Numbered from the stretch's first letter, positions 20,101 through 51,961 are shown. The stretch is 64,000 nt of DNA from Candidatus Poseidoniales archaeon (GCA_038110525.1 JAYNJV010000005.1:4892-68891); one strand, 5' to 3'. Notes: generated from the sequence alone by a model not told the origin. Translations and numbers: made by a program.

Positions 20101-23100
20101 AGGTGATATTTCGAGTGATAGCACCACCTGCTGTTGCCACTTGAAGAGGTTGGGCTCGTCTTAAGACAAAGTCATCGACGCTGTTGTATTGCCCGTTGTT
20201 CTCAAATCCAATCAATCCTTGATTGGTTGTTAACCAAAAGTGCGATGACGTGACAATACCTTGGCGGACTTCATTGACGCCTTGAGGGGGCAAGGCCAAG
20301 TTGAGAATAGAGTGTGAACTTGTTCGAGATTCGAGCATAGCGATACCATTGTTTGAACTGATGGTCACAATTTGGTTCCCATTGCTCATCATGTCACGTG
20401 CCGGCCACCAAGAATTGAGATTCGCAAACCCCTGCCCCTCTTCAAAATCTCCACTGCTGCTGTTCCAGTGAATCATCTGTTGAGAGTTGAAGGCCGAAAT
20501 GTGGACGCCCCACCAATCGCTTGATAGTGCGATGACTACATTTGATGGAAGTTGGTCAAATTTATGTGTTGAATCAACGGTTGGAGGTGAAGTGCCAATG
20601 TCAAGAATACTCACCCCAGGTCGTTCATCGCCCCGTCCATCGTGTGAAACAATGAGGCTGATTGAACCATCTGAATTTGTTCTAGGTGCAAACATCCATG
20701 ATGAGTCACCGTCGAGTCCTTGGGCTTGTCCAATGGTTTGCATTTGGCCAGCCCCTTCATCAAATTCAACGATCCCATTTGCGGTAGCAAAGTACACCAG
20801 AGAGCCCTGTCCAGTTCCTGAACCACCGACATAGACATCATTGACGACAGCGGCAGGTAAACCATCAGCGGTTGTTATGGAATCTTCCCAATCTGCTGTT
20901 GTGTAGTTCCAAACACCAACGCCATTATCTGTTGCAATATACATGTGTGTTGAACTTGAACCGAATCCATTGACAATATTGGAGGGTAAACCTGCAATGA
21001 GTCTACCCGTCGTGAAGGACTGTGAACCAAGATTGAAACGCTGCACCCCAGGACTTGAACCAGATTGTGCTGCTAGTCCAATGACGAGTTCATTTCCATA
21101 GCGGACAATACCATCGAGATTTTGATGTAGGCCACCATTGATTTTTTGCAATTGCCCATTCGAAGTGAGTTTGAACAGTCCATTTTCAATCGTCGAGAAG
21201 TAGATGTCTGAATTGACCATTTCAGCATCGTATGCGACTGCACGTCCAGGGAATGTCCACCCATAATCCCATTCAATGGTACCGTTTGGCAAGAAATGAC
21301 CTTTGAGGACACCTGTTGCTGCAAATGAATTTCCAGTGCCACCATTTGTGGGGCGAGTCGTGACATAGACGTGTGTTGAATTGCCTGTAATGGTGCCTAA
21401 TTGTCCACTTACAATACCGGGAAGGTCAAGCAAAACTTGTTCTCCAAGAATAGAAATATTTGACACTCGACTGTATCCAGATGATCCGCCAGCTTGTCCC
21501 ATCAACCATGAGGAACCAAGCCACTGGAATGATGTCGCAGATGAACCACCACCTCGAACTGTTGCTTGACCAGTGGTTGCTCCGTTGGAAGTGAAAATTG
21601 AATATCCACCTGCAATATCATTACCGACGCCGTGTCCAACGATGAGACGCCCATTCGCCCAATCCAAGCCATCGTACCATACAAGGTCAGTAGGTAATCC
21701 GTTTGCCGAGGTTGTGATTTGATTGAGCCATTGTTGAGTAGCGTAACTATACTTTGAAATTCCTTGGTTGTTGTTGTAAAATCCTACATACAGTGTTTGC
21801 GATGAATCACAAGTGACCGATGCAACACCGAATCCACCAAAGTCAGACCGTTGGAACGGCGAGACAGTACTGGACTGATTGTTGTTAATGTTGAACCGAG
21901 CAATTGAACCAGTACCTTGGTACATAGCCATGTGGAGGTATCCACCGCACATCGTAGCAGATATTGGATATCCGTTTGGGATGTTGTTGGATTGACTGCT
22001 TCGATGAAGAGTTGTGATGTTGGTAATGCCGTTGATATGGGTGACTACACCTTCTTGGAAGAAGTCACCACCGCCAAAGTTGCCGTAGATGCCACCACCT
22101 ATGATGAGGTGGTTTCCATCGGTCCATAATTCAAAGAAATGAGACCCTGCATTATTGGGAAGCCCACTTCCTTCTGTCCATGTGGAAAGCCACTGTGAAT
22201 TTTGTTCATCGTATCGAAGGATTCCATCTTCAGATGCAAAGAGGGTTGCCCCCTTCCATTCGACGATGCCCCGAATGGGGAAATCAAACTGAGTCCAGGA
22301 ACCCACAAGTGTGTAACTTGAATCATAGAGTTCAAGTTTGGTTTCGCCCCAAGCGACCCAAGTGTTGCCGTAGCTGCTCTTGTAAGCAGTTACACGGTCA
22401 ACTTGCCCTTCGGGAAACACACTTGTTCCCCAAGAATTGTTTGATGTATTCCATAATGCAAGGCCTCCTGAACCCTCAGCATTCCACCATTGGCCAGAAG
22501 CAACAGAAGCGATGATAATGTCACCTATCAAACCAAGTCCGTAGATGACTCCGCCATTTTCGTTCACTTCAGGGCCCGCATCTAAGAGTGTCATTTGACT
22601 AAAATTAGCCACATCGATACGACCAATGGAATCAGAATTATCGCTTCTGTAATACATAACGTTGTTGTGAATAATCATCTGATAGGGTTCGGACGTTCCT
22701 GTGTAGAGGTTACTGTTTCGTTCGATATCGTAGACTTCTTGTCCAGATGTGACGTTAATGAGTTGGAACCCATCTCCGCCTCCAATCCAAAGATGATTTG
22801 GGCGAATATCGGCAACAAGTCCGGACACATCCTCATTACCATTATCGAGAACATTGTCAAGCGTGTAGGGTGTCATCCATTGATTGGTTGATAATTCGTA
22901 TCGAAGAACGCCAAACCCATTGATGCCAATGTAGGCGACGTTTCCAATAATCTCAACGACAGCATTTCCAGATTGACCAAAATCATTTTCCCAATTTTCC
23001 GACCAAGTAAATGATGATTTGTCGATGAGTCCAGCACCGCTAATAGTGCCGCCAAAGACCGTTGTTGAATTGGTTCCTACACTGTAAACTGCCCAATTTG

Positions 23101-25525
23101 GCATCCCATCCGGTTGATTAATGCAATCTTGAACTGCAAGCGAACTTAATGTGTATTTGCAAAGCCCAATATTCGTACCCGCGTAAATGGCATTTCCTTC
23201 GACCATGAGGTCAAAAAATTGTGATGGGCGTGTAGACCAACTGCTTCCCAAACCGAAGGATGACGCTGATTGGCCATCCCATCGACGAGCCCCTTGCTGA
23301 GTTCCAATGTACAAATTACTTCCATCTGAGGTGAGGGCATAGACATTTGCTGAAGGAAGAATAGCGAATCGATTTCCACTATTTCCTTGAGCTGTGACCA
23401 GCGGCTGAATAATTTCATTGAGCGACAAGTCCTTGCGTGCAACACCAAATCCTGGAAGCCCTAAGTGAAGGATATCGCCGACAAGAGCAACTGGAGCAAA
23501 ATCAACACCGTTCACACCAGTCGATGTCCATGGTTGTAAGAATGATGTGGAACTGATGTTGTAGCGTAAGACACCTTCATCTTCTGATGCGATGTAAATG
23601 ATTTGATTGTGAATCGCAACATCGAGCAGGAATGAAGAGTCAAGACCGTTTTGGGTGTTAAAGACATTCCAGCCTGCGTTTGTTGTTGTGTGGTCGATAT
23701 AGGCCATCACTCCCGAAGCCACAATCACCAAGTTCGTTGTATCCACAGCACATCCTGCAAGTCTTGAACCGGTTTGTTGGCTGCTTGAGTAATATGTTTG
23801 AACTTGTCCCGACGGTGATATCTTTGAAACATCTCCATTTTCAAAACAGACAAAGATGGATTGCCCATCAGTTCGTAGATACGTGATACTGTTTTGATTT
23901 TGATTACCGAGGTTTGATAGCGGAGTATCCCATTGAGCAGATGCAACATTGTATCGGTTGATGAGGCCATCTGCACCGACATAGACAATTCCGTTTAACT
24001 CCACAATGCCAGTCATGTCACCAGAGGTTGGCCCACTTGCCAACACAATCTCAACAAAAGTAGAACTTTGGTCGGCGTTATAGGCAATCAATCGACCAGA
24101 ACCGTCATTGATGATCACTGGGGACCACGTGGGTCCAAATTCGCCACCTGCGGGCCATGAGAAAAGGCTTTGTCCATCACCAAGAAGCCCAAAGGTTGAC
24201 GACAATCCGTAATTTCCGCCACTGACGAAAACGCCACTTGTGAGGTTGTAGGTTTGCAGATTTTTCCCATTCAAGATGTACAATGTACTCGAGTTGAGGG
24301 CTAAACCACCAACATAATTTGATGACAACCAATTGCCGCTGTTCCAACTCGAAAGCCAAAATCCTGAATTCCAATCGTATCTGCCAATCCCACTATCATG
24401 AGATGCCATGAAAATTTGGTTTCCAACCACGAGGAATTCAGTCACCGAATCCGAATGCAAGTTGTTGGCCGTGGACCATTGAGACCTGACATTCCCATTG
24501 GAAATATCGATGGCTTGAACACCAAGATTTGCATGTGAAACATAGAGTACGCCATTGTTGACGAGCATAGCAAGACCATCGTTCGATCCTGAATTTTGTT
24601 GACCGCTTGTGACCCAAGTTGATGTTGAATTGCTTTGTTGAAGAGAAGCTACACCGCCTGAATATGTGGCCCACCAAGTTTGCCCATCGTGAATAAATTT
24701 ATTGAAGATATAATTGGCAGGGGCGTGCGGTAAACTGCTTTGAATTGAATTATCGAGGAGTGCTAATGCTGAAAAAGTACCATCTGCATGCAAAATGTGC
24801 AAAAGTCCTGACGAAGCCTCGCTTTCAAGGTCGAGAATCCTTTCTTTTTGGAGGTCAATGACATCAAGAATTGAAGATGTTGCTCCATTAAAGCCCAAGA
24901 CAAGAATTGAGGTCCCAATCGCCAAGTACATTTTGTTATCATTTACATCAAGTTCTGAGTCAGTAATTTGAACTGTGACCTCCCTAAGAGAAATCGCAGG
25001 GTCAGCAGGAGAGAGCGCTTCGATAATCATCGTCGTAATTTCTGCATCGGTCGGCAGTGTCACTTGTGCACCTGAGAAACTATTCGGACTGAGTTGACCT
25101 GATTTTGTGGAGGATGCTGGAGAGCCATCGAAGACATTTGTTTGACCGAGAGTCCCCCAACCTCTCATATCGACGAGATTGGCATTGTTTTGTTGTCCAA
25201 TAAAGAGATGTGGTTCATCAATGATGATTCCGTCTTCGCCACGAACTTGGATTTCAAGGTTAACATTGGATACTTCTGCACCTGGTGCAAAGGATAAGTT
25301 CCACGTTGCTGATGCTTTTGTTCCGATGGTTGGATTAGCACCAGTGGTCGTCAATTGAACCCATCCTGTATCGTTGCTTCCCTCTGTGGGCCACACAACA
25401 TCACCGGGGACCGAATGTGCTTGAACAGGTGCGAGGAGACCGAGTGGAATCGTTGTACTCAAGACCATAATGGCAATCATAAGAACGGCTGAAAACGCTT
25501 TGTTATTCGGAGAGCGCTCCATCAT
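17189..25525 (-). CDS. giant (2,778 aa) type-I cell-surface protein: signal peptide, many Reg_prop-like beta-propeller blades, FN3/Ig-like modules, C-terminal TM anchor, Q/P-rich cytoplasmic tail
   Basis: Uninterrupted 8.3-kb ORF. Signal-like N-terminus FSAVLMIAIMVLSTTIPLGLLAPVQAHS. Recurrent blade motif G(I/V/L)xRY(D/N/E)xxxxxW. Repeated DDGG...W....DFSxY modules. TM segment LLLAIGLALLLLIILIMVV, then a 103-aa tail. Confidence 0.85.
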   Translation of the reverse strand: MMERSPNNKAFSAVLMIAIMVLSTTIPLGLLAPVQAHSVPGDVVWPTEGSNDTGWVQLTTTGANPTIGTKASATWNLSFAPGAEVSNVNLEIQVRGEDGIIIDEPHLFIGQQNNANLVDMRGWGTLGQTNVFDGSPASSTKSGQLSPNSFSGAQVTLPTDAEITTMIIEALSPADPAISLREVTVQITDSELDVNDNKMYLAIGTSILVLGFNGATSSILDVIDLQKERILDLESEASSGLLHILHADGTFSALALLDNSIQSSLPHAPANYIFNKFIHDGQTWWATYSGGVASLQQSNSTSTWVTSGQQNSGSNDGLAMLVNNGVLYVSHANLGVQAIDISNGNVRSQWSTANNLHSDSVTEFLVVGNQIFMASHDSGIGRYDWNSGFWLSSWNSGNWLSSNYVGGLALNSSTLYILNGKNLQTYNLTSGVFVSGGNYGLSSTFGLLGDGQSLFSWPAGGEFGPTWSPVIINDGSGRLIAYNADQSSTFVEIVLASGPTSGDMTGIVELNGIVYVGADGLINRYNVASAQWDTPLSNLGNQNQNSITYLRTDGQSIFVCFENGDVSKISPSGQVQTYYSSSQQTGSRLAGCAVDTTNLVIVASGVMAYIDHTTTNAGWNVFNTQNGLDSSFLLDVAIHNQIIYIASEDEGVLRYNISSTSFLQPWTSTGVNGVDFAPVALVGDILHLGLPGFGVARKDLSLNEIIQPLVTAQGNSGNRFAILPSANVYALTSDGSNLYIGTQQGARRWDGQSASSFGLGSSWSTRPSQFFDLMVEGNAIYAGTNIGLCKYTLSSLAVQDCINQPDGMPNWAVYSVGTNSTTVFGGTISGAGLIDKSSFTWSENWENDFGQSGNAVVEIIGNVAYIGINGFGVLRYELSTNQWMTPYTLDNVLDNGNEDVSGLVADIRPNHLWIGGGDGFQLINVTSGQEVYDIERNSNLYTGTSEPYQMIIHNNVMYYRSDNSDSIGRIDVANFSQMTLLDAGPEVNENGGVIYGLGLIGDIIIASVASGQWWNAEGSGGLALWNTSNNSWGTSVFPEGQVDRVTAYKSSYGNTWVAWGETKLELYDSSYTLVGSWTQFDFPIRGIVEWKGATLFASEDGILRYDEQNSQWLSTWTEGSGLPNNAGSHFFELWTDGNHLIIGGGIYGNFGGGDFFQEGVVTHINGITNITTLHRSSQSNNIPNGYPISATMCGGYLHMAMYQGTGSIARFNINNNQSSTVSPFQRSDFGGFGVASVTCDSSQTLYVGFYNNNQGISKYSYATQQWLNQITTSANGLPTDLVWYDGLDWANGRLIVGHGVGNDIAGGYSIFTSNGATTGQATVRGGGSSATSFQWLGSSWLMGQAGGSSGYSRVSNISILGEQVLLDLPGIVSGQLGTITGNSTHVYVTTRPTNGGTGNSFAATGVLKGHFLPNGTIEWDYGWTFPGRAVAYDAEMVNSDIYFSTIENGLFKLTSNGQLQKINGGLHQNLDGIVRYGNELVIGLAAQSGSSPGVQRFNLGSQSFTTGRLIAGLPSNIVNGFGSSSTHMYIATDNGVGVWNYTTADWEDSITTADGLPAAVVNDVYVGGSGTGQGSLVYFATANGIVEFDEGAGQMQTIGQAQGLDGDSSWMFAPRTNSDGSISLIVSHDGRGDERPGVSILDIGTSPPTVDSTHKFDQLPSNVVIALSSDWWGVHISAFNSQQMIHWNSSSGDFEEGQGFANLNSWWPARDMMSNGNQIVTISSNNGIAMLESRTSSHSILNLALPPQGVNEVRQGIVTSSHFWLTTNQGLIGFENNGQYNSVDDFVLRRAQPLQVATAGGAITRNITSQTHVGQTISLIDSTNPLQLNLAGDVTGPHNTQFSTMPLMFTSPVDNAMVWTQLVDLKYNAIINLSNDVNLQSNLQYAIDSGMLLNNTQHVSLTLQSPQNGSILIRLSYDFIRRDTPIQMNSLYDRPDDGGSTLMVEWSLIHDPDFSQYLVFINEGPWSIAPTELDLSQRTPDKIISLHSRTSTDVSTANGQSLVDGTDYYALVVTQYNDGRWGNIPSQIGPASPSDEIPRPPLWAMAQPHLNGADGEIELEWARCTALDLASTNVYVSKSQFNDVVGLKAHSTFDVNEGNTSIITLTPQTPYWIGFTCEDESGQENKSDVTVIGPIVPTGDLNDEQAPPPVEGTSAEDVPDDEGGRIVVRWNESTASDCSFYAVYMSPWDIDVELPDIEQGDVTSFSQATIVSPCDETEVIINQLDGIPLVDGRMYAIGVVAFDAWLNADLTAVTLVTATPLQNVVGKGSIPDRITNIMAFDHPDDDGTAIDVIWSPSEADDFSSYTIWVADKPLNDISWLYASRGTNAETCGCFTFSKQWIDEKTNPIELTISTGLYGGQDLLATTPQLIKPDIKLYVVVTVHDLKGNVHVDDLIQATVTPIDNINDNTPPNRLDSVEISDVPNDDGSAIFVDFDLSDASDISSYEIYGATWAFSDVSVGGDGPTTPLVVLHRAPELPVRIELLAGDTPILAGLDIWIAVVAVDASGNAYKSNLLVAQGQSIDNGGFSANDPLSKPTDVKVSWVNEKDILVQWQNPVDDRVDGMRIYILNEGYSTTDEADFVIEIAGATSFVINNEIYPDLVNTSRWYIAVAPFNTLGMEKDVIPVVLNSVEDSTGSTNQDSDETEFSINALMSQELLLAIGLALLLLIILIMVVRGRGGSGGSSRVSKDWELQESTWGIETNSDWNETGYGSPQSTQVPEQPQSYQQVGAYGREVYQPAQPVLQPVQQPTQQFSQPTQNPQQYTPSTIDTSFLDDLL

Positions 25526-33237: not shown

Positions 33238-35568
33238 TCATTGATTTGACGGGTCGGTATCACCTTGTGTAAGAAATTTTTGACGCTGGAAAATTTTCGG
33301 TGACCACCAGTTGAACTTGCCCATCAAGCGCATCGTAGATGGTACAACCAAAGCCCGAACCAAGGTGGCATCGATGAGAATGGCAAGGGCCAATCCCAAG
33401 CCAATTTGTTTCAGAATAATAACCGAAGACAAGCCAAAGGCGCTAAACACGACGACCATAATGGCAGCAGCACCGGTGATGAGGCCCCCCGTCTTCTGCA
33501 GCCCGTTGGCCACGGCGAGCGTGTTATCTCCAGTTCGTTCCCATTCTTCGTGAATGCGAGACAACATCAGCACTTCGTAGTCCATAGAAAGTCCGAATAC
33601 AATACAGAACATGATGACTGGGTTGCCTGAATCAATAGGTTGGGCGGTGAAATTGAGCAGGCTTTCACCGTATCCCCACTGGAACACCCACACCAACATT
33701 CCGAACGAAGCTGAGATGGACAAGATGTTCATGGCGATGGCCTTGATTGGGATGATGACAGAGCGAACTTGGAGGAAAATCAACAAAATGGTAGCGACGA
33801 GGATGAAAGCCAGTGCTCGCGGAAGATTGTCGGCGATAGCGTCAAGATTGTCTGCATTGTAAGCGGCAAAGCCAGCAACCAACAAACGGTCATCGTCGCC
33901 ATCAAAGTCATCGAGAAAACCGTCCCGATGTTTTCGAATGTCCTCGACCATCATTCTGGAATCAACGTTGGTTTGAGCCCCCACCAATTGAAGAGAAATC
34001 ATAGTGGCGTTGTCACCCACCAAAGATGAACGCAAACTTTCTCGCATGGCAATTTGTTCAGCCGGGAGGAATTCATCTGGCGTTTGCCAGAATTGCAGTA
34101 CTTCGTCGACGTTCATAGTAGGGGACGGCAACCCCACACCGATGCCGCCTGACGTTCTTGAATCGTTAAGCAACTCGGTTATGTAAGCGTGCTGAACTCG
34201 CAGGTTTGCTTCCGAAAGGGGGTCGGCTCCGTCGGTATCAATGACCAAGAAAATCGAGTTGGCTGCTTGGTCAGGCCAGTGTTCATCGATGAGTTCCATA
34301 CCTTGTCTGGATTCATCATCGGGGGGCAGAGCCTTCCACGAAGAAAGGGAAAATTCAGCGTATGCAAATGGCAACCCAGCACCGATCAACAACACCAATG
34401 TAGGAATCAGAACAGCCCAAGGTCGGTCCATGACTCGCTTGGCGATGCGGGCCCACATGCCATCGTCTTTGGCCGACATATCAAACGCATAGGGAATTTT
34501 TCCTTTGTTGACTCGAGGACCCAACCAAGCCATTACTGCAGGTAGGACGATTGTTGAATAGATCATGGCAATGGAAACGGCGATTGTTCCCCCAATGCCG
34601 AGCGAAGGCAGCGAAGTGTTGGAAAAAAAGAGCATTCCCATGAGTCCAATAGCTACGGTGATGCCGGAATAGAAGACCGCTTTTCCAGCGGTAGCACAAC
34701 TCATTGCCGTGGCGGTCCGAACATCGTGACCACGGTCCAATTCTTCTCTGAACCGATTGACGAGGAACAAGGAATAATCAATGGACACCCCGATGCCAAT
34801 GAGAGAGACGATGTTCGTGGCATAAACGGTCACGTCGGTGATGTTTGACAGCAATACGGTCATCCCCATAGCTGCGATCAGCGTCCCTCCACCAATACCC
34901 ATTGGAAGGATTGCCGCAATGAATGAACCAAAGATGAGCCCTAAGATGATGAGTGTGAGCGGAATTGCAACGAGTTCGGCTTTGATGAGGTCGTTTTTGA
35001 TTCGGTCGTCGAAGGTCCAATCAATTGCAATACCATCGGTCTTCCAACCCTCAAATCCACTTGCGATTTCAATTGAATCGTGGTGTTCGTCCATGATGGC
35101 TTTGGCCTCTTTTCGGCTGGTAGCAAAGTGAACGGTATTGATAGCGTAATTGCCGTCATCACTGCTGACGAACACATCGTCTCTATCAACATCATCAGCA
35201 AGCCAAGAATAGTCAATCGTCACATGAGGTTGTTCCGCAAACGGTTTCAAAGCCGCCACTACTGCATCTTGCCATTCAACAGTGGAGTCGTTCAATGTAG
35301 GATGGTACACGAGATATCTGAGCGTTTGCCCTCCGTCATCATCGTCGGTTCCGAACCGCTCGGCGATGAGTCGTCCTGCATTGACGGACTCTACATCGTC
35401 TTCACCGAATCCTTCTGCCCAATCTGCCCCAATGGACATGAGTCCACCCATGAAGATACATGAGATGAGGCCAAAGGCCATCATCACCTTTCGATGATCG
35501 TGGATGAACAAGCCGAGTCGGAAGAAGAGGCGGTTTTTGAGGACCTCAGGGTCGGTCGCACCTTCCAT
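33238..35568 (-). CDS. MMPL/RND-superfamily membrane transporter
   Basis: 776 aa with two repeats of six TM helices plus a large loop. Typical MMPL blocks: SIDYSLFLVNRFREEL and GLSMDYEVLMLSRIHEE. Confidence 0.8.
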   Translation of the reverse strand: MEGATDPEVLKNRLFFRLGLFIHDHRKVMMAFGLISCIFMGGLMSIGADWAEGFGEDDVESVNAGRLIAERFGTDDDDGGQTLRYLVYHPTLNDSTVEWQDAVVAALKPFAEQPHVTIDYSWLADDVDRDDVFVSSDDGNYAINTVHFATSRKEAKAIMDEHHDSIEIASGFEGWKTDGIAIDWTFDDRIKNDLIKAELVAIPLTLIILGLIFGSFIAAILPMGIGGGTLIAAMGMTVLLSNITDVTVYATNIVSLIGIGVSIDYSLFLVNRFREELDRGHDVRTATAMSCATAGKAVFYSGITVAIGLMGMLFFSNTSLPSLGIGGTIAVSIAMIYSTIVLPAVMAWLGPRVNKGKIPYAFDMSAKDDGMWARIAKRVMDRPWAVLIPTLVLLIGAGLPFAYAEFSLSSWKALPPDDESRQGMELIDEHWPDQAANSIFLVIDTDGADPLSEANLRVQHAYITELLNDSRTSGGIGVGLPSPTMNVDEVLQFWQTPDEFLPAEQIAMRESLRSSLVGDNATMISLQLVGAQTNVDSRMMVEDIRKHRDGFLDDFDGDDDRLLVAGFAAYNADNLDAIADNLPRALAFILVATILLIFLQVRSVIIPIKAIAMNILSISASFGMLVWVFQWGYGESLLNFTAQPIDSGNPVIMFCIVFGLSMDYEVLMLSRIHEEWERTGDNTLAVANGLQKTGGLITGAAAIMVVVFSAFGLSSVIILKQIGLGLALAILIDATLVRALVVPSTMRLMGKFNWWSPKIFQRQKFLTQGDTDPSNQ

Positions 35569-35619: not shown

Positions 35620-36099
35620 TTATAATACTTCAAAAATATACAAAAAACCGAGGAATGAGTGAATAAAAACAAGAATCATGACCAAATCTGAAGCCCTACC
35701 ATGTTGCTTTTTTTGTAGTGCAAACGATTCCCCTTTTTCTTTTAAATCAGCAGCTCGTCGGCCAAATCGCACCATGTAGTAGAGCAAGAACAGACCGATT
35801 GGGCCAGAAAAACCATGAAGGCTTGATGGAATGAGGCTTTTGAGCATGCTTTCATTGTGGATGTACGCATCAATTGCTCGGGCGACGAATGCAAGCAGCA
35901 CAATCATGATTGCAGAAACGAGTAAGCGTTCTCCAATTTTTTGATGTTGTGCGACATAAGTTGTCCGTTCTTCACCTTTGAATTGCAATTGTCTGGTTTT
36001 CCATGAATACTGCCACCACATTGCAGTGATGAGTACAATAGCAAAAATAGGATGGAGCAGCAAGACAACGGTTGAGAACATATCCATCTGATTCAGCAT
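35620..36099 (-). CDS. 4-TM membrane protein, unknown function
   Basis: 159-aa ORF with four hydrophobic helices. Confidence 0.5.
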   Translation of the reverse strand: MLNQMDMFSTVVLLLHPIFAIVLITAMWWQYSWKTRQLQFKGEERTTYVAQHQKIGERLLVSAIMIVLLAFVARAIDAYIHNESMLKSLIPSSLHGFSGPIGLFLLYYMVRFGRRAADLKEKGESFALQKKQHGRASDLVMILVFIHSFLGFLYIFEVL

Positions 36100-36212
36100 G
36101 ACTATGACTCTTACCTATGTTGATTTTGTGTTTGAGGAACGTCGTTGTCAAACTTTCATAGCGGTGGGTTGAAAACACACCGTTTCCGCGTTTGATATAT
36201 CGAGGTTATCCT

Positions 36213-39200
36213 ATGATTGAACTTAGGATGGAACAATGCTTGAAGGAGGTATTGGGCTATCCTAAACAAAATAGGCTCAAAATCGCCGTACGTTCTTCTT
36301 CATGGGAATTGCTCGATAAGCCGCACAAAGGCATTCTTTCATTTGCAATGAATGAAGAAGAAGTACCACCAGAAGATGATGAAAAGGGTTCAACAAGTCA
36401 ACCCGTGCGCAGTAGAGGCCGAAGATTGAGAAATAAAAGCAGAGGACAAGCCTCGGCAATGTCACCATTCGAATATCTCCCTGAATTAGATGATATGGAG
36501 CAATTCGAATTATCATCAGCATCGACCCTTGCAATCTTACTGATACGAAAGCAGATGAATGACCAACAATGGAATGATGATTTTGATGCCCTTGAACAAG
36601 TGATGAGAAACGATTGTCTTGAGAAAGGAGTCCATCCGGTTTGGCATATGATTGCAGAAAAAACGAATTATCTTACTCAATTTTTGGCGTTTTCTAAGGT
36701 GAGACCAAAATCAGAAACGGCCACAATTCAATTTGACGTTACTAAAGTTGCCATCAATCCAACGAAATCATCTCAAATTGTAGAATTGTTAACCCATGCC
36801 CTTGCTACAACGATAGACGCAAACTTACAAGTTGCAATGAATCGGTTGGTAAGTCAACTTCAGTCTTCTTCAGGCCATGTTAGTAAAGTTGAACAACAAT
36901 TACTTGAATTGAGTGGAGACCATAAATTCTTGAGCATTGTTTTGAAATTTTTCATTCAAGACTCGCTTGATGACGACGAACTTGCTTTTTTGCAGGGTTC
37001 AAAAAGTCAAGTCGCAAAACTATTGTATATTTATCATCAATTTCAAAACAAGGATTACTCTTCCTGGAAGGAAGTCATTGAACTCAATGGCGAAAATGAA
37101 CTTCAGTTATTCCTGCTTGAAACACTTTGGATGAATATTCCCGATGAGGCATCAGAACTCACTTCAGGACAACTTGAAGATGGCATCCAACGAATTCAAC
37201 ACATTTCTCATGCGAAAGCCCAGACTGAAAAAATAAAATGGTGGAAAATGAGTGCTTTGCAAAAAGAAGGAGAAGGGAGTGTTGCATTAGAAGTGCTTCA
37301 GGACCTTTCGATAAGTTCAACCACCGATATCGATGCATTGTTGAAATTTCTTACAATTTTTCCCCAAGAAGAAACGAGTTCTTGGCTTGAAAAATACTTG
37401 GATGTGATCGACGTCGATGGGTTGAGCGCAATTCTTGTTTCAAATCATTACGAAGGAGGATTGCAATTGCACATTGCTCAGAAAATATTCGATACGCATG
37501 GGTTGGACCTTGAACAAGAACGAAGTTTTCTCCTGCAAGCATTTGTTTGTGGATTGGATTTTGACCGGCTAATCCAATTGTTTCATCTGGACCCTGTGCT
37601 AAGTATGTCGTATCCTTATGATGCGTTATTCTGCTATCATGCTACTCCATCAGGATTGTCAGTCAACGATGAAAAAAGATTTCATGAATTAAGATTGCAT
37701 TCTATTCAAAGTTTAAACGATTCCCAAAGACCAAATTATTTGTCCGATGCAACCGAAGAACTTCTTCTTCTCATGGAAGGAATTCAAAGCGAATCGAATG
37801 CATTAATGAAAACCTTGGGCAATAAGACTTACATCGATTTTTTACCAATTATCAATGCACTTCATCACGGTATTGCAGAAGTCAATATTCAACAAAACAA
37901 ATTAGAAGCTGTAAAATTGAGGGTTGATAATACCGAAAATTTGTCCATTATTGAACGCCATTTGTTCAATGTGTTGTTTGCAACCATTTCCGTCAACAAC
38001 ATACGCCAATCGTTTCACAATCGAATGGAAGACACTGACCAAAGAAAGGTGTTGTCAAGTATTGTCAATCAGCCGTATTTTACATTAACAATTTTACATA
38101 CCATTCAAGAACTCGTTTTAGATTATGATTTAGGTATTCCCGAATTGGTTGAATGGTATCAACATTGGAGCCCCTCTTCACCTTGGCAGACTCTTTCAAG
38201 AGCTGCGCATCATGTAACTCGAAATGAACAACTCAATGCTGCACGGGAATACAAACGAATTGCCGACCAAATACATCAAGTTCGAATTCAATCGAATCAA
38301 GGAAAACAAAGTGAAGAAGATGTGAGTTATTACATCGAGCAAGGTGTGTTCGGAATTGAACAAGAAATCGCATTGTACCGCAAAGCTCTCATCCATTACG
38401 CCCACGCAGAACATTGGTCCGAGGCTTTAGAATTACTCGAGAAAAATGCATCCCTAAAATCCGCTCTCACCAAACGCTTCCAACTTTACCTACATGTGTC
38501 GGATTTAGCCAGCCGTCAGCAATCCGGACCAGCAACTCGTCTCATTTTGAATCACGTTCAAAAGAAGCAAGAGATGGCTGATGAACTTCATGATAATCAG
38601 CGATACCGAGAGACGTATGACGAAGAGGAACTTGAAACATTGCGAAGTTATACAACAAGTCATGCCATTCACTTGCCAGAAAAACCGTTCAATGGTCGAG
38701 TGATAGCAGCACATACCGAACTATCAAGGAAATTGTCGAGAAATAGGGATGAGTTCGAACGACGGTATCAAACACTTGCGAAGGAGAAAAAATTGGACAC
38801 AATGGCTGTGTATTCACTTGCGAAAGATGCAAGCCAAGAAAGTCCGTTAACTGGGTTAAAGATTCTCGAGAGAGCCCAGCATCAAACCAATATCACTTCC
38901 AAACAACGCGATAGTTTGCAGGCTGCTGAATTGAATTTATTCAAATCCTATGAATCAGAAATTGCGTTAAAGAACCGAAGTCAATTACGCCAATTAAATC
39001 TGAAACCACTTGTCATTATCGATACCAATATTCTTGTGAATGCTCTTATCGAAGAGGTGTATGCCCATCTCGGAATTATCGTTGGCCATCAACGTTCGAC
39101 AATGAAGCAGAGCGATTCTCTGGGCGATGTTCTTCCTAATTCTGGACTTGGTGATTTCTTCCGATTTTTGAAAAACCAAGCAGATTCTGGAAAGATTTTC

Positions 39201-39716
39201 CTCCATGTACCAGATGTTATTCGAGACGAATTGAATATGTTCAAGGACAAACAGCGATTAGAGAGGCAGATGAATCTGCAATCGATGTATTCTAAATCAA
39301 ATGGTAAAGAAATCACTCAGGAGTTCTTGCAACAGAAAATTAACGAAGTTATCGCTTCATTTTCCACGTGGAAGAGTCCGATTGAAATCAAAGCAGTCAA
39401 CGATATCAATACACCAGAAATTGAAGAATTTTTTGTACGCCATGAAGAAGTATTTCAAGAAATATCAGAGGTGAAGCAGAAGAATGGAGCAACGACTCCG
39501 AGAACCGAGATCGCTGGTAAGAAGTATTATCCCGAAGAAAATGACATGCAGTTATTGCACTATACAAAGTCGATTTCGGAACTCGCATCAAAAGATATCG
39601 GCGTCGTTCTCATTGCATCATATGACAATGATTTCACCTTTATCTCCCGTTCTTTGGAAGAAACCTTTGGATTTTCGGTTGTCCGAAATCCCAGAACATT
39701 GTCAGATTGGTTGTGA
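36213..39716 (+). CDS. large helical protein with C-terminal PIN-domain nuclease
   Basis: 3.5-kb uninterrupted ORF. The C-terminal 238 aa (39000-39713) carry PIN acidic elements in order: VIIDTNILV, DVIRDEL, EENDMQLL, SYDNDFTF. The start is ambiguous (TTG 36192, ATG 36213, ATG 36228). Confidence 0.75.
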   Translation: MIELRMEQCLKEVLGYPKQNRLKIAVRSSSWELLDKPHKGILSFAMNEEEVPPEDDEKGSTSQPVRSRGRRLRNKSRGQASAMSPFEYLPELDDMEQFELSSASTLAILLIRKQMNDQQWNDDFDALEQVMRNDCLEKGVHPVWHMIAEKTNYLTQFLAFSKVRPKSETATIQFDVTKVAINPTKSSQIVELLTHALATTIDANLQVAMNRLVSQLQSSSGHVSKVEQQLLELSGDHKFLSIVLKFFIQDSLDDDELAFLQGSKSQVAKLLYIYHQFQNKDYSSWKEVIELNGENELQLFLLETLWMNIPDEASELTSGQLEDGIQRIQHISHAKAQTEKIKWWKMSALQKEGEGSVALEVLQDLSISSTTDIDALLKFLTIFPQEETSSWLEKYLDVIDVDGLSAILVSNHYEGGLQLHIAQKIFDTHGLDLEQERSFLLQAFVCGLDFDRLIQLFHLDPVLSMSYPYDALFCYHATPSGLSVNDEKRFHELRLHSIQSLNDSQRPNYLSDATEELLLLMEGIQSESNALMKTLGNKTYIDFLPIINALHHGIAEVNIQQNKLEAVKLRVDNTENLSIIERHLFNVLFATISVNNIRQSFHNRMEDTDQRKVLSSIVNQPYFTLTILHTIQELVLDYDLGIPELVEWYQHWSPSSPWQTLSRAAHHVTRNEQLNAAREYKRIADQIHQVRIQSNQGKQSEEDVSYYIEQGVFGIEQEIALYRKALIHYAHAEHWSEALELLEKNASLKSALTKRFQLYLHVSDLASRQQSGPATRLILNHVQKKQEMADELHDNQRYRETYDEEELETLRSYTTSHAIHLPEKPFNGRVIAAHTELSRKLSRNRDEFERRYQTLAKEKKLDTMAVYSLAKDASQESPLTGLKILERAQHQTNITSKQRDSLQAAELNLFKSYESEIALKNRSQLRQLNLKPLVIIDTNILVNALIEEVYAHLGIIVGHQRSTMKQSDSLGDVLPNSGLGDFFRFLKNQADSGKIFLHVPDVIRDELNMFKDKQRLERQMNLQSMYSKSNGKEITQEFLQQKINEVIASFSTWKSPIEIKAVNDINTPEIEEFFVRHEEVFQEISEVKQKNGATTPRTEIAGKKYYPEENDMQLLHYTKSISELASKDIGVVLIASYDNDFTFISRSLEETFGFSVVRNPRTLSDWL

Positions 39717-39717
39717 T

Positions 39718-40095
39718 TTAGACAAATTGAGGAACATTTGTTCCTGTCTTTGGTGGCTTGAGCGAATCTTCATTGACTCTATCAATCAAATCTTTTCCTA
39801 AGATCATCGCACATGATAATTCAGTGCGGTCTGTAACTGACAATTCAACATCGTATGTGGTTCGACCAACTCGAATTTTTGCCTCGACCAAACGGCGAGT
39901 TTGTTTTCCCATAGCATTTCGAACTTGTATTTCACCAATTTCTTTCAAACCGAGAGCTTTTGCTAATTTTTTATCGATTGAACATCTCGCAGCACCGGTG
40001 TCAATTTTTGCCTTCAATCGAATCCACCACTTTCGTTTTCCTCCACCTTTTAGGCTCACCCATCGAGAGTCAAACGATTTTGCCATCGGCATCAC
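39718..40095 (-). CDS. retropepsin-like aspartic protease (DUF785 / so-called ATP-dependent zinc protease family)
   Basis: KIDTGAARCSID (DTG catalytic motif) and a later ILGKDLI flap-like block. 125 aa. It starts 6 nt downstream of icd on the same strand. Confidence 0.6.
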   Translation of the reverse strand: MMPMAKSFDSRWVSLKGGGKRKWWIRLKAKIDTGAARCSIDKKLAKALGLKEIGEIQVRNAMGKQTRRLVEAKIRVGRTTYDVELSVTDRTELSCAMILGKDLIDRVNEDSLKPPKTGTNVPQFV

Positions 40096-40101
40096 CCTAA
40101 A

Positions 40102-46207: not shown

Positions 46208-46299
46208 GGTAATGCATGGACATAGATGAATCCAATGGCTATGTTTTGATTTTCTTATGCATCGGTGGTTTCAAATTGGTGCACCAAAGCGGAGGAGTT

Positions 46300-47853: not shown

Positions 47854-48561
47854 ATGGTGCTTGAGCAACTTCGGAAATCTTGGGAAAAAAGCCTCGACCC
47901 AATTCTTGAGAAATACGATTGGATTTCTCCTTCAATCATTACATGGATAGCCTTACCCATCGGTTTACTCGCCGCAATATTGTCTTGGTTTGCCCCGATG
48001 GGTGCTGAGGGCGGTTGGTGGTTTATCGGAAGTGCTGCGTTAATCGGCATAGCGATGATTTTTGATGGATTGGATGGGCCAATTGCGAGGAAGAAGGGGA
48101 TGGTGACTCGTTGGGGAGATTATCTCGACCATACTTTTGACCGTATTCTCGATGCAGCGTGGTTGATTGGACTGAGCGCCTCAGCATATGTGGACAATTT
48201 CGCATTAGGTTTTGCTGCTGCCTTCTTTACCTTGCTCGGCTCATACATGGGTACACAAGCCCAAGCCGTCTCTGGGACAAGAAATTATGGTGGCTTTTCA
48301 AGAGCAGATCGAACAATACTCATCATTCTCATGCTCACCATTATGGGTGTGGTGACAATCGCAGATTACCCATTTAAAGACCGATTTTTCGCACCATTTG
48401 ACTCCATTGCCCTCAACCCATTGTCTGTCGTCTTGTTCATCAGCCTATTTGGTGGTTTGTGGACGTTTTTCCTTCGATTTTTTCAAGCACAGAGCGTGAT
48501 TCAATCTATGGATGTCAACCACCCACTTCCGCAACCAAATGCTGCGCCCGAAGAAGAATAA
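47854..48561 (+). CDS. CDP-alcohol phosphatidyltransferase (archaetidylserine / archaetidylinositol-phosphate synthase class)
   Basis: Signature DGLDGPIARKKGMVTRWGDYLDHTFDRILD (D-G-x2-A-R-x8-G-x3-D-x3-D), with about 6 TM segments. Confidence 0.75.
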   Translation: MVLEQLRKSWEKSLDPILEKYDWISPSIITWIALPIGLLAAILSWFAPMGAEGGWWFIGSAALIGIAMIFDGLDGPIARKKGMVTRWGDYLDHTFDRILDAAWLIGLSASAYVDNFALGFAAAFFTLLGSYMGTQAQAVSGTRNYGGFSRADRTILIILMLTIMGVVTIADYPFKDRFFAPFDSIALNPLSVVLFISLFGGLWTFFLRFFQAQSVIQSMDVNHPLPQPNAAPEEE

Positions 48562-48618
48562 TCGGAAATGTAGCAAACATACTCAAATAGAACATTTTAA
48601 GCAAAATGGCGGCATAGT

Positions 48619-48628
48619 CATAATATAC
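48619..48628 (+). promoter_or_regulatory. candidate TATA box (CATAATATAC) for the 48665 surface-protein gene
   Basis: AT-rich box 37-46 nt upstream of ATG 48665. GGGGTGGGGT lies between the box and the start. Confidence 0.3.
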
Positions 48629-48664
48629 GAAGTTCACAGGTGTATAGACGGGGTGGGGTATCCA

Positions 48665-51600
48665 ATGAACAAAACAAGGCGACACACATTGTTTGTGCTT
48701 GCAATGATGCTACTTTCAATCGTGCCATTTTCACCGTTAGCAATCGCAGAAGACCAAGGTGTTCCAGAAAACTATCAAGCACAGAATATTGAAGCATATT
48801 TTGACCCAATCACCGAATCCACAACTGTAAATTGGACTGTTCAAGCCACTGTGGATGGCACTGCCCAATTTATCCAATCGCAAGTCTATCAAGTCTATCG
48901 TTCTTCAACTCCAATTACTCCCCAATCATTATCAAGCCTCACACCTTTTGCAACAAGGGATGTTTGTCCACAATCAATGAGTCCGTTCCAATGTTATGGT
49001 ATGGCTCATTCCGTCACATTTGCTGTTCTGCCTGGTGTTAATGGGTCATTTTATTACGCCGTCACCACTATGCTCTCCAATGGAACCGAAGCGGCGGAAC
49101 TCATCATGAATTCATCCTCATTATACACTCCAGTTGAAGAGGTAACATCAGCCATAAAAACCCCTTACTTTGTCTCAGCATCCTTCGATCCATCAACAAG
49201 TATCACTTCTCTTCGTTGGATTAATCACAACAAAATCTGCAATTGCCTCGACCTTCCTGAAACTGGGCCATCCGCCATGAGCATTCGCGTGTGGCGAACA
49301 GAATATCCAGTTGACCGAAGCGTTGGTCTCACCTTGCCTACACAAGGAACCTTGGTGGCAAATCTAACGGCTAACGCCTCCTCTCTTGATATTGTTATTC
49401 CACAAGATACTGAAAGGACGAGCTATTATTCACTCACATATTACTTACCGAATTGGTCTGGTCCAAATCAATCCTATGAGGACTTCCGTTTCCTTGCAGA
49501 GAATACCCTCAAGGAGCCAGTTGAAGAAGATAACATGCCACCTTCACAACCAACCATCGTGTATGCACAGTTCCAGCCTGAACCTGAAACGGGTGGCGGA
49601 GCAACCTTGATTCAATGGAACGATCTTCTTGATGAGGAGGGTGAAACATACCGAATATATCGCTCGGACCAACCATTTACGACAATTTTACGAGCAGATG
49701 TTGAACTTGTAGTTAAGGATATCATCGAAGGCATCGAATCCTACGAAGTACCTGTTCCTCGGGGATATCTTGGTTACTCATATTATTGCATGGTTACCGT
49801 CGATGCTACGGGTGTGATCAACACCAACACAACCCAAACGAGTTGTACCTCACAAGATGGAATTCTTGAAGACGCTTTCTACAACTGGATTGCCGAACCG
49901 ACCAATGTTGAGTGTGAGTACTTAGGTGACCGTACAACACGTGTCACTTGGGACGACCAACTTGGGGTCGAAGGTGAGCAATACCATGTGTGGCATGCAA
50001 CATACCGAGTCTCTGGAGTTGAGGTCCAAAACAACCCGAGTGCATTGAATTGGAACATGTCCGTGGATACAGGTGCTCAACTTTGGCTCAAAGGTTCAGT
50101 TGCTGACGGTGTAGGTGAGTTATTTATCGAAATTGAGGAAGGTATTGAACCAACCCAATCACGTTACTTTGTGACCACAGAAGCCTTGTATGGTAACCAC
50201 AACGGAACATACCATTATCTCGGTTTGGAACAAAATTTCTGTACGCCAGGTTTAGAGGATACCAAAGCGCCAGATATTCCATCGATTCGAACTGCAGAAA
50301 CGAACGGTGTACTCAATCTCGTTCAAATTGAATGGGTCAACGATGATGATGAACAGGGAGAAACCTATGCTATATGGCGACACTATGGCGACCCATTTGA
50401 CCCACTTGGTGATTCAGAAGCCATTGAAGATGGATGGGAACTCGTTCGTTCAGAAATTCATGAAATGTCAGGTCAATATTTGTACGAAGAATTTGAAATC
50501 GAAGTCAATGTGGACCGAGATGTCTGGTATGCAGTGACCATTACCGACCGATTCAACAATACCAATTACGAAATTACCAGTAACCTTGGCGGTAATGCTT
50601 ACCGAGTTCACGAAGACACGTTACTCCCGAATGCAACCTTACTGTTCCTTGACAGCACAGGTGCTCCGTACACAAGTCCATCACTTGTTTCAGGTTCCTA
50701 TACGCTTCGTGTCGAAGTCAACGAAGATTTATCGACGACGCCAACGATCAACATCACGACCTCCAGTGGTGGTCAACTCACTGGCGATGAAGAGCCATTA
50801 CCGATTCTCCAAGACAACAAGAACGACCCAAATCGTGGTCCAGTGTACGAATATGATTTCTCGATTACCTCAAACACAAAAGCAGGTCTCATGACCATCA
50901 AAATTCGAATGACCGATGAATCAAACAACGAAGTTGTACAATCATGGAGTGAGAAATTTGTCGATGCAAAAATGCCGACAATCACCATCTTTTCGCCTTC
51001 ATCAAGAAATGATGGGTCTCAATACCTCTATGGTAACAACGTCAACGTTCTTGTTGGGGCTGAAGATGACGTCATGGTTGCTTCATTCCAATACAGATTC
51101 ACATACCATTATGGAGGCACGACTGGGAGTACAGTTTCAACAGAATGGTCAGACCTGACAGGCATTACAGATCTTGATGGCGATGGTTCAGCGTTAACAG
51201 CAAATATGGATGTTGCTGCGGGTAACTTTGGTTTAGGTTATCACCGACTTTCCGTTCGAGTGGTTGACACGGCAGGAAATCAGAACACCGCTAATGTTGA
51301 TTTCACGGTAGATTTCTGTCGAAACACCATCAACGGAACAACGATTTGCGAAGTTGTTGAACAATTGAAGGGCACACCTGACCCTATAGAAATCCGCCCT
51401 TCATTTACCGACCCGCCATATGTCATTGTCTGGATTGTTGCAGCCATCAATTTGCTCGCCATTCTCGTGTCGATGCTTGTCATTAAGACTGGAATGAGTG
51501 GACCGAAGAAGAAGAAGGGTGAAGAAGAAGAGACTGATGACTGGATGGCGGAATTCATCGGTTCAGGCTCATCTCAGGAATTGGATATGTCGGCTATTAC

Positions 51601-51961
51601 TGGAACTGAAAAGAAGGAGGTTCCAAGCCTCGACAGCGATGGTGCAGAGAAATCAAATGAACCCGAAGAAGATGACCCATTCGCCATTAATATCACTCAA
51701 CGAAAACCACGCCGCCGTCAGTCAAAGAAGGAAGAGCCTGAAGATGACGACGATGACGACGATGACGACGATGATGACGAAGACCTCTTCGACGATGACG
51801 ACGATGACGACGATGATGACGATGACGATGATGGCCCACGACGTCCACGACGAAGACCCGCAGGCCGAGCACCCGCTCGCAAGCGACCGACCACTGGAAG
51901 AAGACCTGCTCCAAGCACAGCACCTCGTAAGCGTCGAACTGTGAAAAGATCTGATGATTGA
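48665..51961 (+). CDS. type-I surface protein (about 1,098 aa) with FN3/Ig-like modules, C-terminal TM anchor and poly-Asp / Arg-Pro-rich cytoplasmic tail
   Basis: Signal-like MNKTRRHTLFVLAMMLLSIVPFSPLAIAED. Repeated W..D...(E)GE.Y.(I/V)(W/Y)R modules. TM segment VIVWIVAAINLLAILVSMLVI. I reject the 51-aa upstream extension in the track ORF. Confidence 0.75.
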   Translation: MNKTRRHTLFVLAMMLLSIVPFSPLAIAEDQGVPENYQAQNIEAYFDPITESTTVNWTVQATVDGTAQFIQSQVYQVYRSSTPITPQSLSSLTPFATRDVCPQSMSPFQCYGMAHSVTFAVLPGVNGSFYYAVTTMLSNGTEAAELIMNSSSLYTPVEEVTSAIKTPYFVSASFDPSTSITSLRWINHNKICNCLDLPETGPSAMSIRVWRTEYPVDRSVGLTLPTQGTLVANLTANASSLDIVIPQDTERTSYYSLTYYLPNWSGPNQSYEDFRFLAENTLKEPVEEDNMPPSQPTIVYAQFQPEPETGGGATLIQWNDLLDEEGETYRIYRSDQPFTTILRADVELVVKDIIEGIESYEVPVPRGYLGYSYYCMVTVDATGVINTNTTQTSCTSQDGILEDAFYNWIAEPTNVECEYLGDRTTRVTWDDQLGVEGEQYHVWHATYRVSGVEVQNNPSALNWNMSVDTGAQLWLKGSVADGVGELFIEIEEGIEPTQSRYFVTTEALYGNHNGTYHYLGLEQNFCTPGLEDTKAPDIPSIRTAETNGVLNLVQIEWVNDDDEQGETYAIWRHYGDPFDPLGDSEAIEDGWELVRSEIHEMSGQYLYEEFEIEVNVDRDVWYAVTITDRFNNTNYEITSNLGGNAYRVHEDTLLPNATLLFLDSTGAPYTSPSLVSGSYTLRVEVNEDLSTTPTINITTSSGGQLTGDEEPLPILQDNKNDPNRGPVYEYDFSITSNTKAGLMTIKIRMTDESNNEVVQSWSEKFVDAKMPTITIFSPSSRNDGSQYLYGNNVNVLVGAEDDVMVASFQYRFTYHYGGTTGSTVSTEWSDLTGITDLDGDGSALTANMDVAAGNFGLGYHRLSVRVVDTAGNQNTANVDFTVDFCRNTINGTTICEVVEQLKGTPDPIEIRPSFTDPPYVIVWIVAAINLLAILVSMLVIKTGMSGPKKKKGEEEETDDWMAEFIGSGSSQELDMSAITGTEKKEVPSLDSDGAEKSNEPEEDDPFAINITQRKPRRRQSKKEEPEDDDDDDDDDDDDEDLFDDDDDDDDDDDDDDGPRRPRRRPAGRAPARKRPTTGRRPAPSTAPRKRRTVKRSDD
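51743..51832 (+). repeat. in-frame (GAY)n trinucleotide tract encoding D12-EDLF-D14
   Basis: Read directly: 12 GAT/GAC codons, then GAA GAC CTC TTC, then 14 GAT/GAC codons. Confidence 0.9.

Follow-up and report, generated by a model that had tools for sequence, protein, structure and literature searches.

In this study, a gene at positions 36213 to 39716 on the plus strand of a 64,000-nucleotide window from a Candidatus Poseidoniales archaeon (GCA_038110525.1, JAYNJV010000005.1:4892-68891) was analysed together with its homologs; the window is the whole stretch of DNA that was analysed, and positions are counted from its first letter. The gene encodes a protein of 1,167 amino acids that combines a long alpha-solenoid with a C-terminal alpha/beta domain. 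On balance, we read this product as a core protein of the Poseidoniales in which the solenoid tethers a metal-dependent, PIN-like nuclease of the VapC group bearing two lineage-specific inserts. The gene is real and under purifying selection, and its distribution is order-wide and syntenic. The C-terminal domain most probably has a divergent PIN-like fold of the VapC group; the case for this consists of invariant catalytic residues, the topology of the domain, sub-threshold profile matches set against a reversed-sequence control, and the top structural match in BFVD. The domain and its elements are as follows:

38988 to 39713, plus strand: PIN-like nuclease domain (residues 926-1167), from the structural model, PIN-clan Pfam matches, BFVD and conservation
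39021 to 39029, plus strand: D937-T938-N939, first acidic element, at the end of beta1, identical in all 28 domain sequences
39069 to 39152, plus strand: insert 1 (residues 953-980), disordered, with a predicted local distance difference test score (pLDDT) below 50, identity 0.18 and a gap in the alignment
39228 to 39230, plus strand: E1006, second acidic element, on the helix that follows beta2, from conservation in alignments A3 and A4
39249 to 39497, plus strand: insert 2 (residues 1013-1095), which in the model forms four helices behind that of E1006, identity 0.23
39534 to 39545, plus strand: E1108 to D1111 (YPExxD), third acidic element, where the helix that follows beta3 begins, with P1107, E1108 and D1111 invariant
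39624 to 39632, plus strand: D1138-N-D1140, fourth acidic element, after beta4, with the consensus ATRDxDF and D1138, D1140 and F1141 invariant

The four strings that a first-pass annotation had singled out as the acidic elements of a PIN nuclease, namely LVIIDTNILV (D937), PDVIRDELN (E1006), YPEENDMQLLHY (E1108/D1111) and IASYDNDFTFI (D1138/D1140), are all present, and the acidic residues that the PIN superfamily carries at fixed positions were found as four elements in the expected order at the ends of strands and helices. In 28 domain sequences, which share 24-37% identity with the window protein apart from two closer ones, D937-T938-N939, R1097, P1107-E1108, D1111, G1130, A1135, D1138, D1140 and F1141 are invariant. 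E1006 reaches a conservation of at least 90% in the same set and does not vary in a 24-member full-length alignment. Moreover, no other part of the protein is as conserved as the two core segments of the domain (mean pairwise identity 0.52 and 0.46), and the two inserts of the domain are the least conserved parts (0.18 and 0.23). The insertion of roughly 100 residues that had been noted between the second and third elements turned out to be the spacing of these elements and not the size of an insert. Successive elements are 69, 105 and 27 residues apart, compared with 35, 56 and 21 in Shigella VapC (PDB 3TND), which therefore indicates two inserts, one of about 34 residues between elements 1 and 2 and one of about 49 residues between elements 2 and 3. 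Insert 1 includes a 13-residue expansion specific to the sub-clade of the window protein. The domain-only AlphaFold2 model (pLDDT 83, predicted template modelling score (pTM) 0.83) has the order beta1, alpha1, disordered insert, alpha2, beta2, alpha3 with E1006, four inserted helices and a beta-hairpin (beta3), followed by a helix starting at D1111, beta4, D1138/D1140, helices and beta5. As modelled, this order of secondary structure fits a PIN domain, with the acidic residues at the canonical places.

When ten members of the family were compared singly with Pfam, all ten matched at least one PIN-clan model (PIN_12, PIN_4, PIN_3, PIN_5, PIN_2 or PIN), and 16 of their 29 matches fell in this clan. 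The PIN-clan alignments shared one register, in which the first residue of beta1 lies on profile position 1-2, and one member spanned the full length of PIN_12 (1-172 of 172) and positions 2-123 of 132 of PIN_4. The same ten sequences gave seven matches when reversed, none of them to PIN. Furthermore, in a Pfam scan of 28 members, the four families matched by most members all belonged to the PIN clan. The top structural match in BFVD was a Medusavirus "PIN domain-containing protein" (probability 0.93, 242 aligned columns), and the weaker matches included XRN, FEN-type exonucleases and an NYN protein. In addition, several members carry the name "LabA/DUF88 family" in the JGI/IMG pipeline; this name stands for the NYN branch of the PIN-like superfamily and supports the assignment to the superfamily and not to the NYN family. 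In an hhalign comparison with VapC, whose register was not significant, D1111 stood opposite D98 of VapC and TRDxDF opposite TNNTREF.

The N-terminal part of about 930 residues is almost wholly helical in the full-length model (pLDDT 77, pTM 0.59), as the first-pass annotation had expected, with the exception of one beta-hairpin (783-802). It is a helical scaffold without an assignable family and is composed of the following segments:

36213 to 36353, plus strand: four-helix segment (residues 1-47) with nearly invariant C9-L10, from the model and alignment A1
36354 to 36476, plus strand: disordered region (residues 48-88) with an acidic patch and, after it, a basic patch rich in Arg and Gly (pLDDT about 31-33)
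36477 to 38558, plus strand: TPR-like alpha-solenoid (residues 89-782, about 38 helices), from the model, Foldseek and weak Pfam matches
38559 to 38747, plus strand: beta-hairpin (783-802), short helix EEELxxLxxY and low-confidence linker (816-845), from the model
38673 to 38717, plus strand: linear motif LPxxPFxGRVxAAxT (residues 821-835) in the linker, from alignments A1 and A4 (pLDDT 29-51)
38748 to 38987, plus strand: helical connector of four helices (residues 846-925), from the model

Foldseek comparison of the full-length model with the PDB retrieved importin-4, Ctr9, Ski3, IFT-A and TPR subunits of APC/C, with template modelling (TM) scores of 0.1-0.17 and E-values of 0.003 at best, which indicate the fold class only. 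A Pfam scan of 24 members gave scattered, insignificant matches to TPR (TPR_12, TPR_6), PPR, ARM and clathrin-repeat models, and searching the PDB by profile yielded no relative. Neither a Walker A motif nor a CxxC pair was found in the 24 members. The solenoid carries the conserved motifs GVHPVWH (139-145), LYRKxLIHYAHA (721-732) and RFxLYL (755-760). The charged patch EEEVPPEDDEKGSTSQPVRSRGRRLRNKSRGQ, which had been pointed out from the sequence, is present as residues 48-79. In all of 24 diverse members the most basic 25-residue segment of the first 130 residues holds 7-11 Arg/Lys, and in 23 of them this segment is the Arg/Gly-rich patch (e.g. GRRGGRGR). The acidic stretch ahead of the basic patch is likewise kept throughout the family. 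An Arg/Gly-rich composition is typical of RNA-binding tails, and the conserved patch may be taken as a hint of RNA binding. Further downstream, the segment of hairpin and linker is the second most conserved region outside the PIN-like domain (mean pairwise identity 0.36), and L821, P822, G828 and R829 of the motif LPxxPFxGRVxAAxT are invariant across 24 members. Since this motif is invariant and yet has a low pLDDT, it may be a short linear motif that binds a partner or its own protein, the latter as a plug in cis.

A search for homologs gave 14 full-length sequences of 1,062-1,167 amino acids with identities down to 31%. In an exhaustive phmmer search of 1.84 billion cluster representatives, 120 matches were obtained, about 40 of which are full-length clusters (at 50% identity) of 1,090-1,170 amino acids with identities down to 22-25%; the remainder resembles fragments of the same family, and no outside relative was recognised among these representatives. 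A scan with one genome per GTDB species located the gene in at least 189 genomes, and the 80 of these that were listed are all labelled Poseidonia, Poseidoniaceae, Poseidoniales or older umbrella names of metagenome-assembled genomes (MAGs). The most divergent members also belong to the Poseidoniales by cluster look-up, and one of them is from Candidatus Thalassarchaeum, the second family of the order, so that both families are covered. The split between the two families has been dated to more than 0.9 billion years ago (PMC10877094). The presence of the gene on both sides of this old split implies that its ancestry probably reaches the ancestor of the order. The ratio of nonsynonymous to synonymous substitution (dN/dS) was 0.11 and 0.07 against close orthologs of 95% and 86% identity, respectively, and by region it was 0.05-0.07 in the PIN-like domain and 0.07-0.12 in the solenoid. 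Synteny is kept at 32% identity, in the order MMPL, 157-amino-acid membrane protein, the gene, retropepsin, icd, OsmC and then FtsZ and RadA. At 24-28% identity, macro-synteny comprises SPOUT methyltransferase, Cob adenosyltransferase, NUDIX, the gene, icd and OsmC. In the source records almost all members are named "hypothetical protein", apart from those that JGI/IMG calls LabA/DUF88; an NCBIfam search of the window protein gave no match, no Pfam or NCBIfam model covers it, and no description of this protein was found in the literature library that was searched.

Two records of the family call for separate mention. In the MAG UBA128, two contigs (L061 and L072) each hold a copy with about 30% identity to the window protein, for which a true duplication, strain heterogeneity and a binning artefact are all possible. 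In addition, a 781-amino-acid fragment on a 2.4-kb contig (cluster of P0020) carries the NCBI label "Flavobacteriales bacterium"; it most likely lies on a mis-binned archaeal contig rather than representing a bacterial homolog.

Catalytic activity, an RNA substrate and a housekeeping role are what we infer for this protein, and the following mechanism may be envisaged. The acidic cluster of D937, E1006, D1111 and D1138, with E1108 and D1140, would coordinate Mg2+ or Mn2+, and the metal-bound cluster would cut the phosphodiester bond of single-stranded RNA. Recruitment and positioning of a specific RNA, a ribonucleoprotein or a partner protein may fall to the solenoid together with the basic disordered patch. 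The statement of the first-pass annotation that no antitoxin-like open reading frame (ORF) is present held, in that no co-directional small ORF lies upstream and the upstream gene is divergent and codes for a membrane protein. Because there is no antitoxin gene, the nuclease would be restrained without a separate inhibitor, either by substrate selection through recruitment or by an element within the same chain. The gene would be expressed singly from a strong promoter of its own. Its role would be a housekeeping one in RNA processing or decay, and not in defence or addiction, because the locus is fixed across the order, selection is purifying, the promoter resembles that of a tRNA gene and the family does not occur on the searched viral contigs or in the defence catalogue. 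In a bolder variant, to which we give only a small chance, the protein is an SMG6-like machine that evolved independently, whose solenoid would dock a ribonucleoprotein (e.g. the ribosome or a complex of RNA decay) and whose Arg-bearing motif LPxxPFxGRVxAAxT, which lies about 100 residues ahead of the PIN-like domain in a flexible linker, would serve as an inbuilt, antitoxin-like plug of the acidic pocket until the target is engaged. If true, an SMG6-like mode of working would represent convergent evolution of a scaffolded endonuclease in archaea, and the self-plugged machine would be a new self-regulated nuclease of RNA surveillance or processing, unique to the Poseidoniales.

The assignment of the C-terminal domain to the PIN-like superfamily has to be weighed against a number of search results that speak against it. 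No Pfam PIN model reached its gathering score, the best values being 23.5 bits against a cutoff of 32 for PIN_12 and 21.3 against 21.9 for PIN_4. The sequence from the window itself reached only E = 0.013 in Pfam, and a chance match in the reversed control attained E = 0.001, so no single Pfam match counts as significant. The top BFVD match had an E-value of only 0.07 and a TM score of about 0.33, and Foldseek comparison of the domain model with the PDB returned no PIN structure and nothing significant. Profile hidden Markov model searches of the PDB likewise retrieved no PIN with alignments A2 and A3, and together with A4 they gave spurious matches only, namely a DC-SIGNR neck-repeat artefact and GGA1. 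A profile of the domain run against a database of 5.8 billion proteins recovered only fragments of the same family, and the probability from hhalign against VapC, whether with the single sequence or with a 117-sequence profile, did not exceed 1%, the VapC profile being narrow (effective number of sequences about 2) and built from the listed matches of at least 73% identity. Results of this kind favour a rival reading, an unrelated alpha/beta domain with PIN-like motifs acquired by chance or convergence, on a scaffold that is non-catalytic or otherwise active. We regard such a domain as unlikely, if deserving of some weight, since it does not readily account for ten of ten members matching the PIN clan in one register with none among the reversed controls, for the PIN-clan membership of all four families matched by most members, for the PIN protein at the top of BFVD or for the independent annotation of members as NYN by the IMG pipeline. 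Moreover, the invariant acidic residues stand at PIN positions in the contexts hhhhDTN and hhATxDxDF, and the two large inserts, of about 30 and 80 residues, plausibly explain the failure of Foldseek because they would break local 3Di alignments. A PIN-like nuclease with inserts, as the first-pass annotation had proposed, stays probable on weaker support than had been assumed. A PIN-like nuclease might also act on DNA rather than RNA, as a structure-specific enzyme of repair or replication of the FEN type. This is suggested by XRN and 5'-3' exonucleases (FEN group) among the weak BFVD matches and by the presence of radA and a UvrD/PD-(D/E)XK helicase-nuclease in the region. It appears quite improbable, as the second acidic position is occupied by a Glu on the helix that follows beta2, an arrangement of VapC type and not of FEN type (PMC5499597), and the Pfam signal comes from VapC-group models (PIN_12, PIN_4, PIN_3 and PIN) and not from the 5'-3' exonuclease. 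Furthermore, the protein ends right after the PIN core, with no H3TH/H2TH module, and the synteny with radA is genome-wide collinearity and not an operon.

The housekeeping role has to be set against a role in anti-virus defence or abortive infection, in which the solenoid would sense a protein or nucleic acid of the virus and thereby release the PIN nuclease to degrade host or viral RNA. A repeat sensor joined to a nuclease effector is a common layout in defence, and the slot directly downstream of the gene is an insertion hotspot. In addition, the protein evolves far faster than its neighbours, with 30-33% identity where icd retains about 67%, FtsZ about 80% and RadA about 89%; such a rate is high for a core gene and would equally fit a gene in an arms race, which counts against the housekeeping reading. 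A defence effector is nevertheless improbable, since the family occupies a single conserved locus across an order about 1 billion years in age (PMC10877094), dN/dS values of 0.07-0.11 give no sign of an arms race, the protein has no Walker A NTPase motif, and the promoter resembles that of a tRNA gene. The PADLOC defence models gave no match apart from noise at E = 0.012, and the family was not found on viral contigs (2.9 million searched). The first-pass annotation had further suggested an accessory or acquired origin from a GC content lower than that of the flanking genes. The dip is real and small, at 0.396 for the gene against 0.441 for the whole window and a per-gene mean of 0.438 (standard deviation 0.031, z about -1.4). 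The contrast had been inflated because the flanking MMPL transporter gene (33238 to 35568, minus strand) is a compositional outlier, with a GC content of 0.50, a GC content at third codon positions (GC3) of 0.552 against a mean of 0.378 and the largest distance in relative synonymous codon usage (RSCU). For the gene itself, GC3 is normal (0.360), as is the RSCU distance from the rest of the window (8th of 22). The GC deficit sits at codon position 2 (0.321 vs 0.392) and is due to the amino-acid composition, which is high in Leu, Glu, Gln and Lys and low in Gly, Pro, Ala and Val. An accessory gene of recent acquisition, or a lone toxin of the VapC type, for which the low GC content and the lack of a database family annotation might be cited, is therefore hardly credible: GC3, codon usage, conserved synteny and order-wide occurrence are all against recent acquisition, which was dropped, and the length of 1,167 amino acids and the lack of an antitoxin are against a solitary toxin. 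The gene is a native, vertically inherited core gene.

The gene, its upstream signals and its immediate surroundings are arranged as follows:

35620 to 36099, minus strand: gene of a 159-amino-acid membrane protein, with a weak DUF4079 match (E = 9e-4)
36161 to 36175, plus strand: upstream motif GCGGTGGGTTGAAAA (consensus CGGTGG.TTGAAAG), a probable BRE/TATA-like core promoter
36202 to 36206, plus strand: Shine-Dalgarno-like GAGGT, 6 nt upstream of the ATG at 36213, from the sequence
36213 to 39716, plus strand: complete gene of the 1,167-amino-acid alpha-solenoid plus PIN-like protein, 1,167 codons plus TGA
39717 to 40101: insertion hotspot between the gene and icd, here with a retropepsin-like aspartic protease

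The position and length of the ORF agree with those given by the first-pass annotation, and so does its TGA stop (39714-39716), which lies 1 nt from the stop (39718-39720) of the convergent retropepsin gene. An alternative TTG start at 36192 would add 7 amino acids; the ATG at 36213 is preferred because of the GAGGT block, at whose position the orthologs have a purine-rich GGGG/GAGG block, and because the N-termini of the orthologs begin 5-10 residues ahead of the nearly invariant Cys-Leu. The 113-nt spacer to the divergent membrane-protein gene (36100-36212) is 87% identical among orthologs with saturated synonymous sites, and CGGTGG.TTGAAAG is conserved in orthologs down to about 30% protein identity. 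The exact motif is unique in the window, where its total matches are no more than expected by chance, and a near-identical element lies about 29 nt upstream of tRNA-Met (46261-46277). Judged from the sequence, the motif is probably a strong promoter comprising a B recognition element (BRE) and a TATA-like box, and transcription may start near 36197, leaving a short leader with the Shine-Dalgarno-like block. A structured RNA in the upstream block was considered and dropped (fold z = -0.39).

Across 84 compared loci, the most constant neighbour is the gene of the 159-amino-acid membrane protein, which is divergent in 79 and shares 40-50% identity; icd flanks in 79 as well. No functional link between this membrane protein and the solenoid-PIN gene is evident, and at locus L086 a co-directional gene of 319 amino acids replaces it. 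The retropepsin-like gene (39718 to 40095, convergent; Asp_protease_2 match, E = 4e-9) is present at only 27 of the 84 loci, so its adjacency is incidental, and a functional link with it was dropped. The slot that it occupies holds other cargo elsewhere, namely a methyltransferase plus a bacteriorhodopsin-family gene in L086 (10281-12082) and a peptidase, an ATP-grasp enzyme and an aminotransferase in L087 (5570-8799). The gene is thus a fixed landmark beside an insertion hotspot. On the other side, the MMPL gene is flipped in orientation or missing among orthologous loci, and rearrangement or transfer is more plausible for it than for the solenoid-PIN gene. Elsewhere in the window, a 1,501-amino-acid protein (43 to 4548, plus strand) has UvrD-type helicase domains and a C-terminal PD-(D/E)XK nuclease, as in an AddA-like helicase-nuclease. 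Two further large ORFs, of 2,778 amino acids (17189 to 25525, minus strand) and 1,149 amino acids (48512 to 51961, plus strand), have no Pfam match at E <= 0.001; the latter had been considered as a paralog of the solenoid-PIN protein, and this was dropped for want of similarity.

According to the literature, the Poseidoniales (Marine Group II) outnumber all other planktonic archaea in the surface ocean, and because they are uncultured, their biology has been deduced almost wholly from gene annotation. The protein described here is among the largest of the Poseidoniales, apparently order-wide and at a fixed chromosomal position. Its assignment as a scaffold-tethered PIN-like nuclease would offer a testable handle on lineage-specific RNA metabolism, and the gene could serve as a lineage marker.

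Compared with known systems, the protein falls outside several families with which it shares single features. For NYN/LabA (DUF88; PF01936 / COG1432), only 1 of 28 members matches, at E = 0.033. The Nob1 type, in which a zinc ribbon with paired CxxC motifs interrupts or follows the PIN domain, is not indicated, with no CxxC in 24 members and a chain that ends right after the PIN core, and STAND/Avs-like or other catalogued defence systems do not fit a protein with no Walker A motif and a conserved locus across the order. Ski3 and Ctr9, TPR-type scaffolds of complexes for RNA decay and processing, and karyopherins resemble the scaffold as all-helical solenoids of about 1,000 residues, with no specific relationship. 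VapC from Shigella (PDB 3TND) has an identical first motif, hhhhDTNI, the same order of D, E, D and an acidic residue, and the last context hhhhT-x-D/N-x-x-F. Unlike VapC, which is a stand-alone PIN protein of about 130 residues (~130-150 in VapBC toxins) with an adjacent, co-transcribed antitoxin, the window protein has 1,167 residues and no antitoxin gene, so it is not a VapBC toxin, and its gene is a core gene that is neither mobile nor multi-copy.

SMG6/EST1A, to which the first-pass annotation had compared the protein, is likewise laid out as a long helical scaffold with a PIN endonuclease at its C-terminal end. As an analogy of layout the comparison stands, and as a relationship it does not: no EST1 or 14-3-3 profile matched any of 24 members at E-values up to 1, SMG5/6/7 structures were not among the best 50 Foldseek matches listed, and PIN_4 (PF13638), which we take to be the Pfam family of the SMG6/SMG5 and YlaK-type PINs, came just below threshold in one member. 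Moreover, the PIN-like domain of the window protein carries two inserts, unlike that of SMG6/EST1, and to our knowledge archaea have no nonsense-mediated decay machinery. No Pfam family is matched better or more often than DUF4935/PIN_12 (PF16289), to which 9 of 14 and 7 of 28 members align (lowest E = 8e-5). The DUF4935 family has been described as VapC-group PINs with a long helical insert after S2, extra helices after S3 and usually monocistronic genes (PMC5499597). The score of 23.5 bits against the cutoff of 32 and the different architecture place the window protein outside it: DUF4935 proteins are bacterial, have about 350 amino acids, carry the PIN at the N-terminus and close with an alpha/beta region, whereas the window protein is archaeal and has its PIN-like domain C-terminal to a 930-residue helical region. 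What the two share is a long insert of helices behind S2, additional helices ahead of the final core elements, four to five acidic residues and a single gene without an antitoxin. The solenoid-PIN protein would represent a new architecture, and probably a new family, for the PIN-like superfamily.

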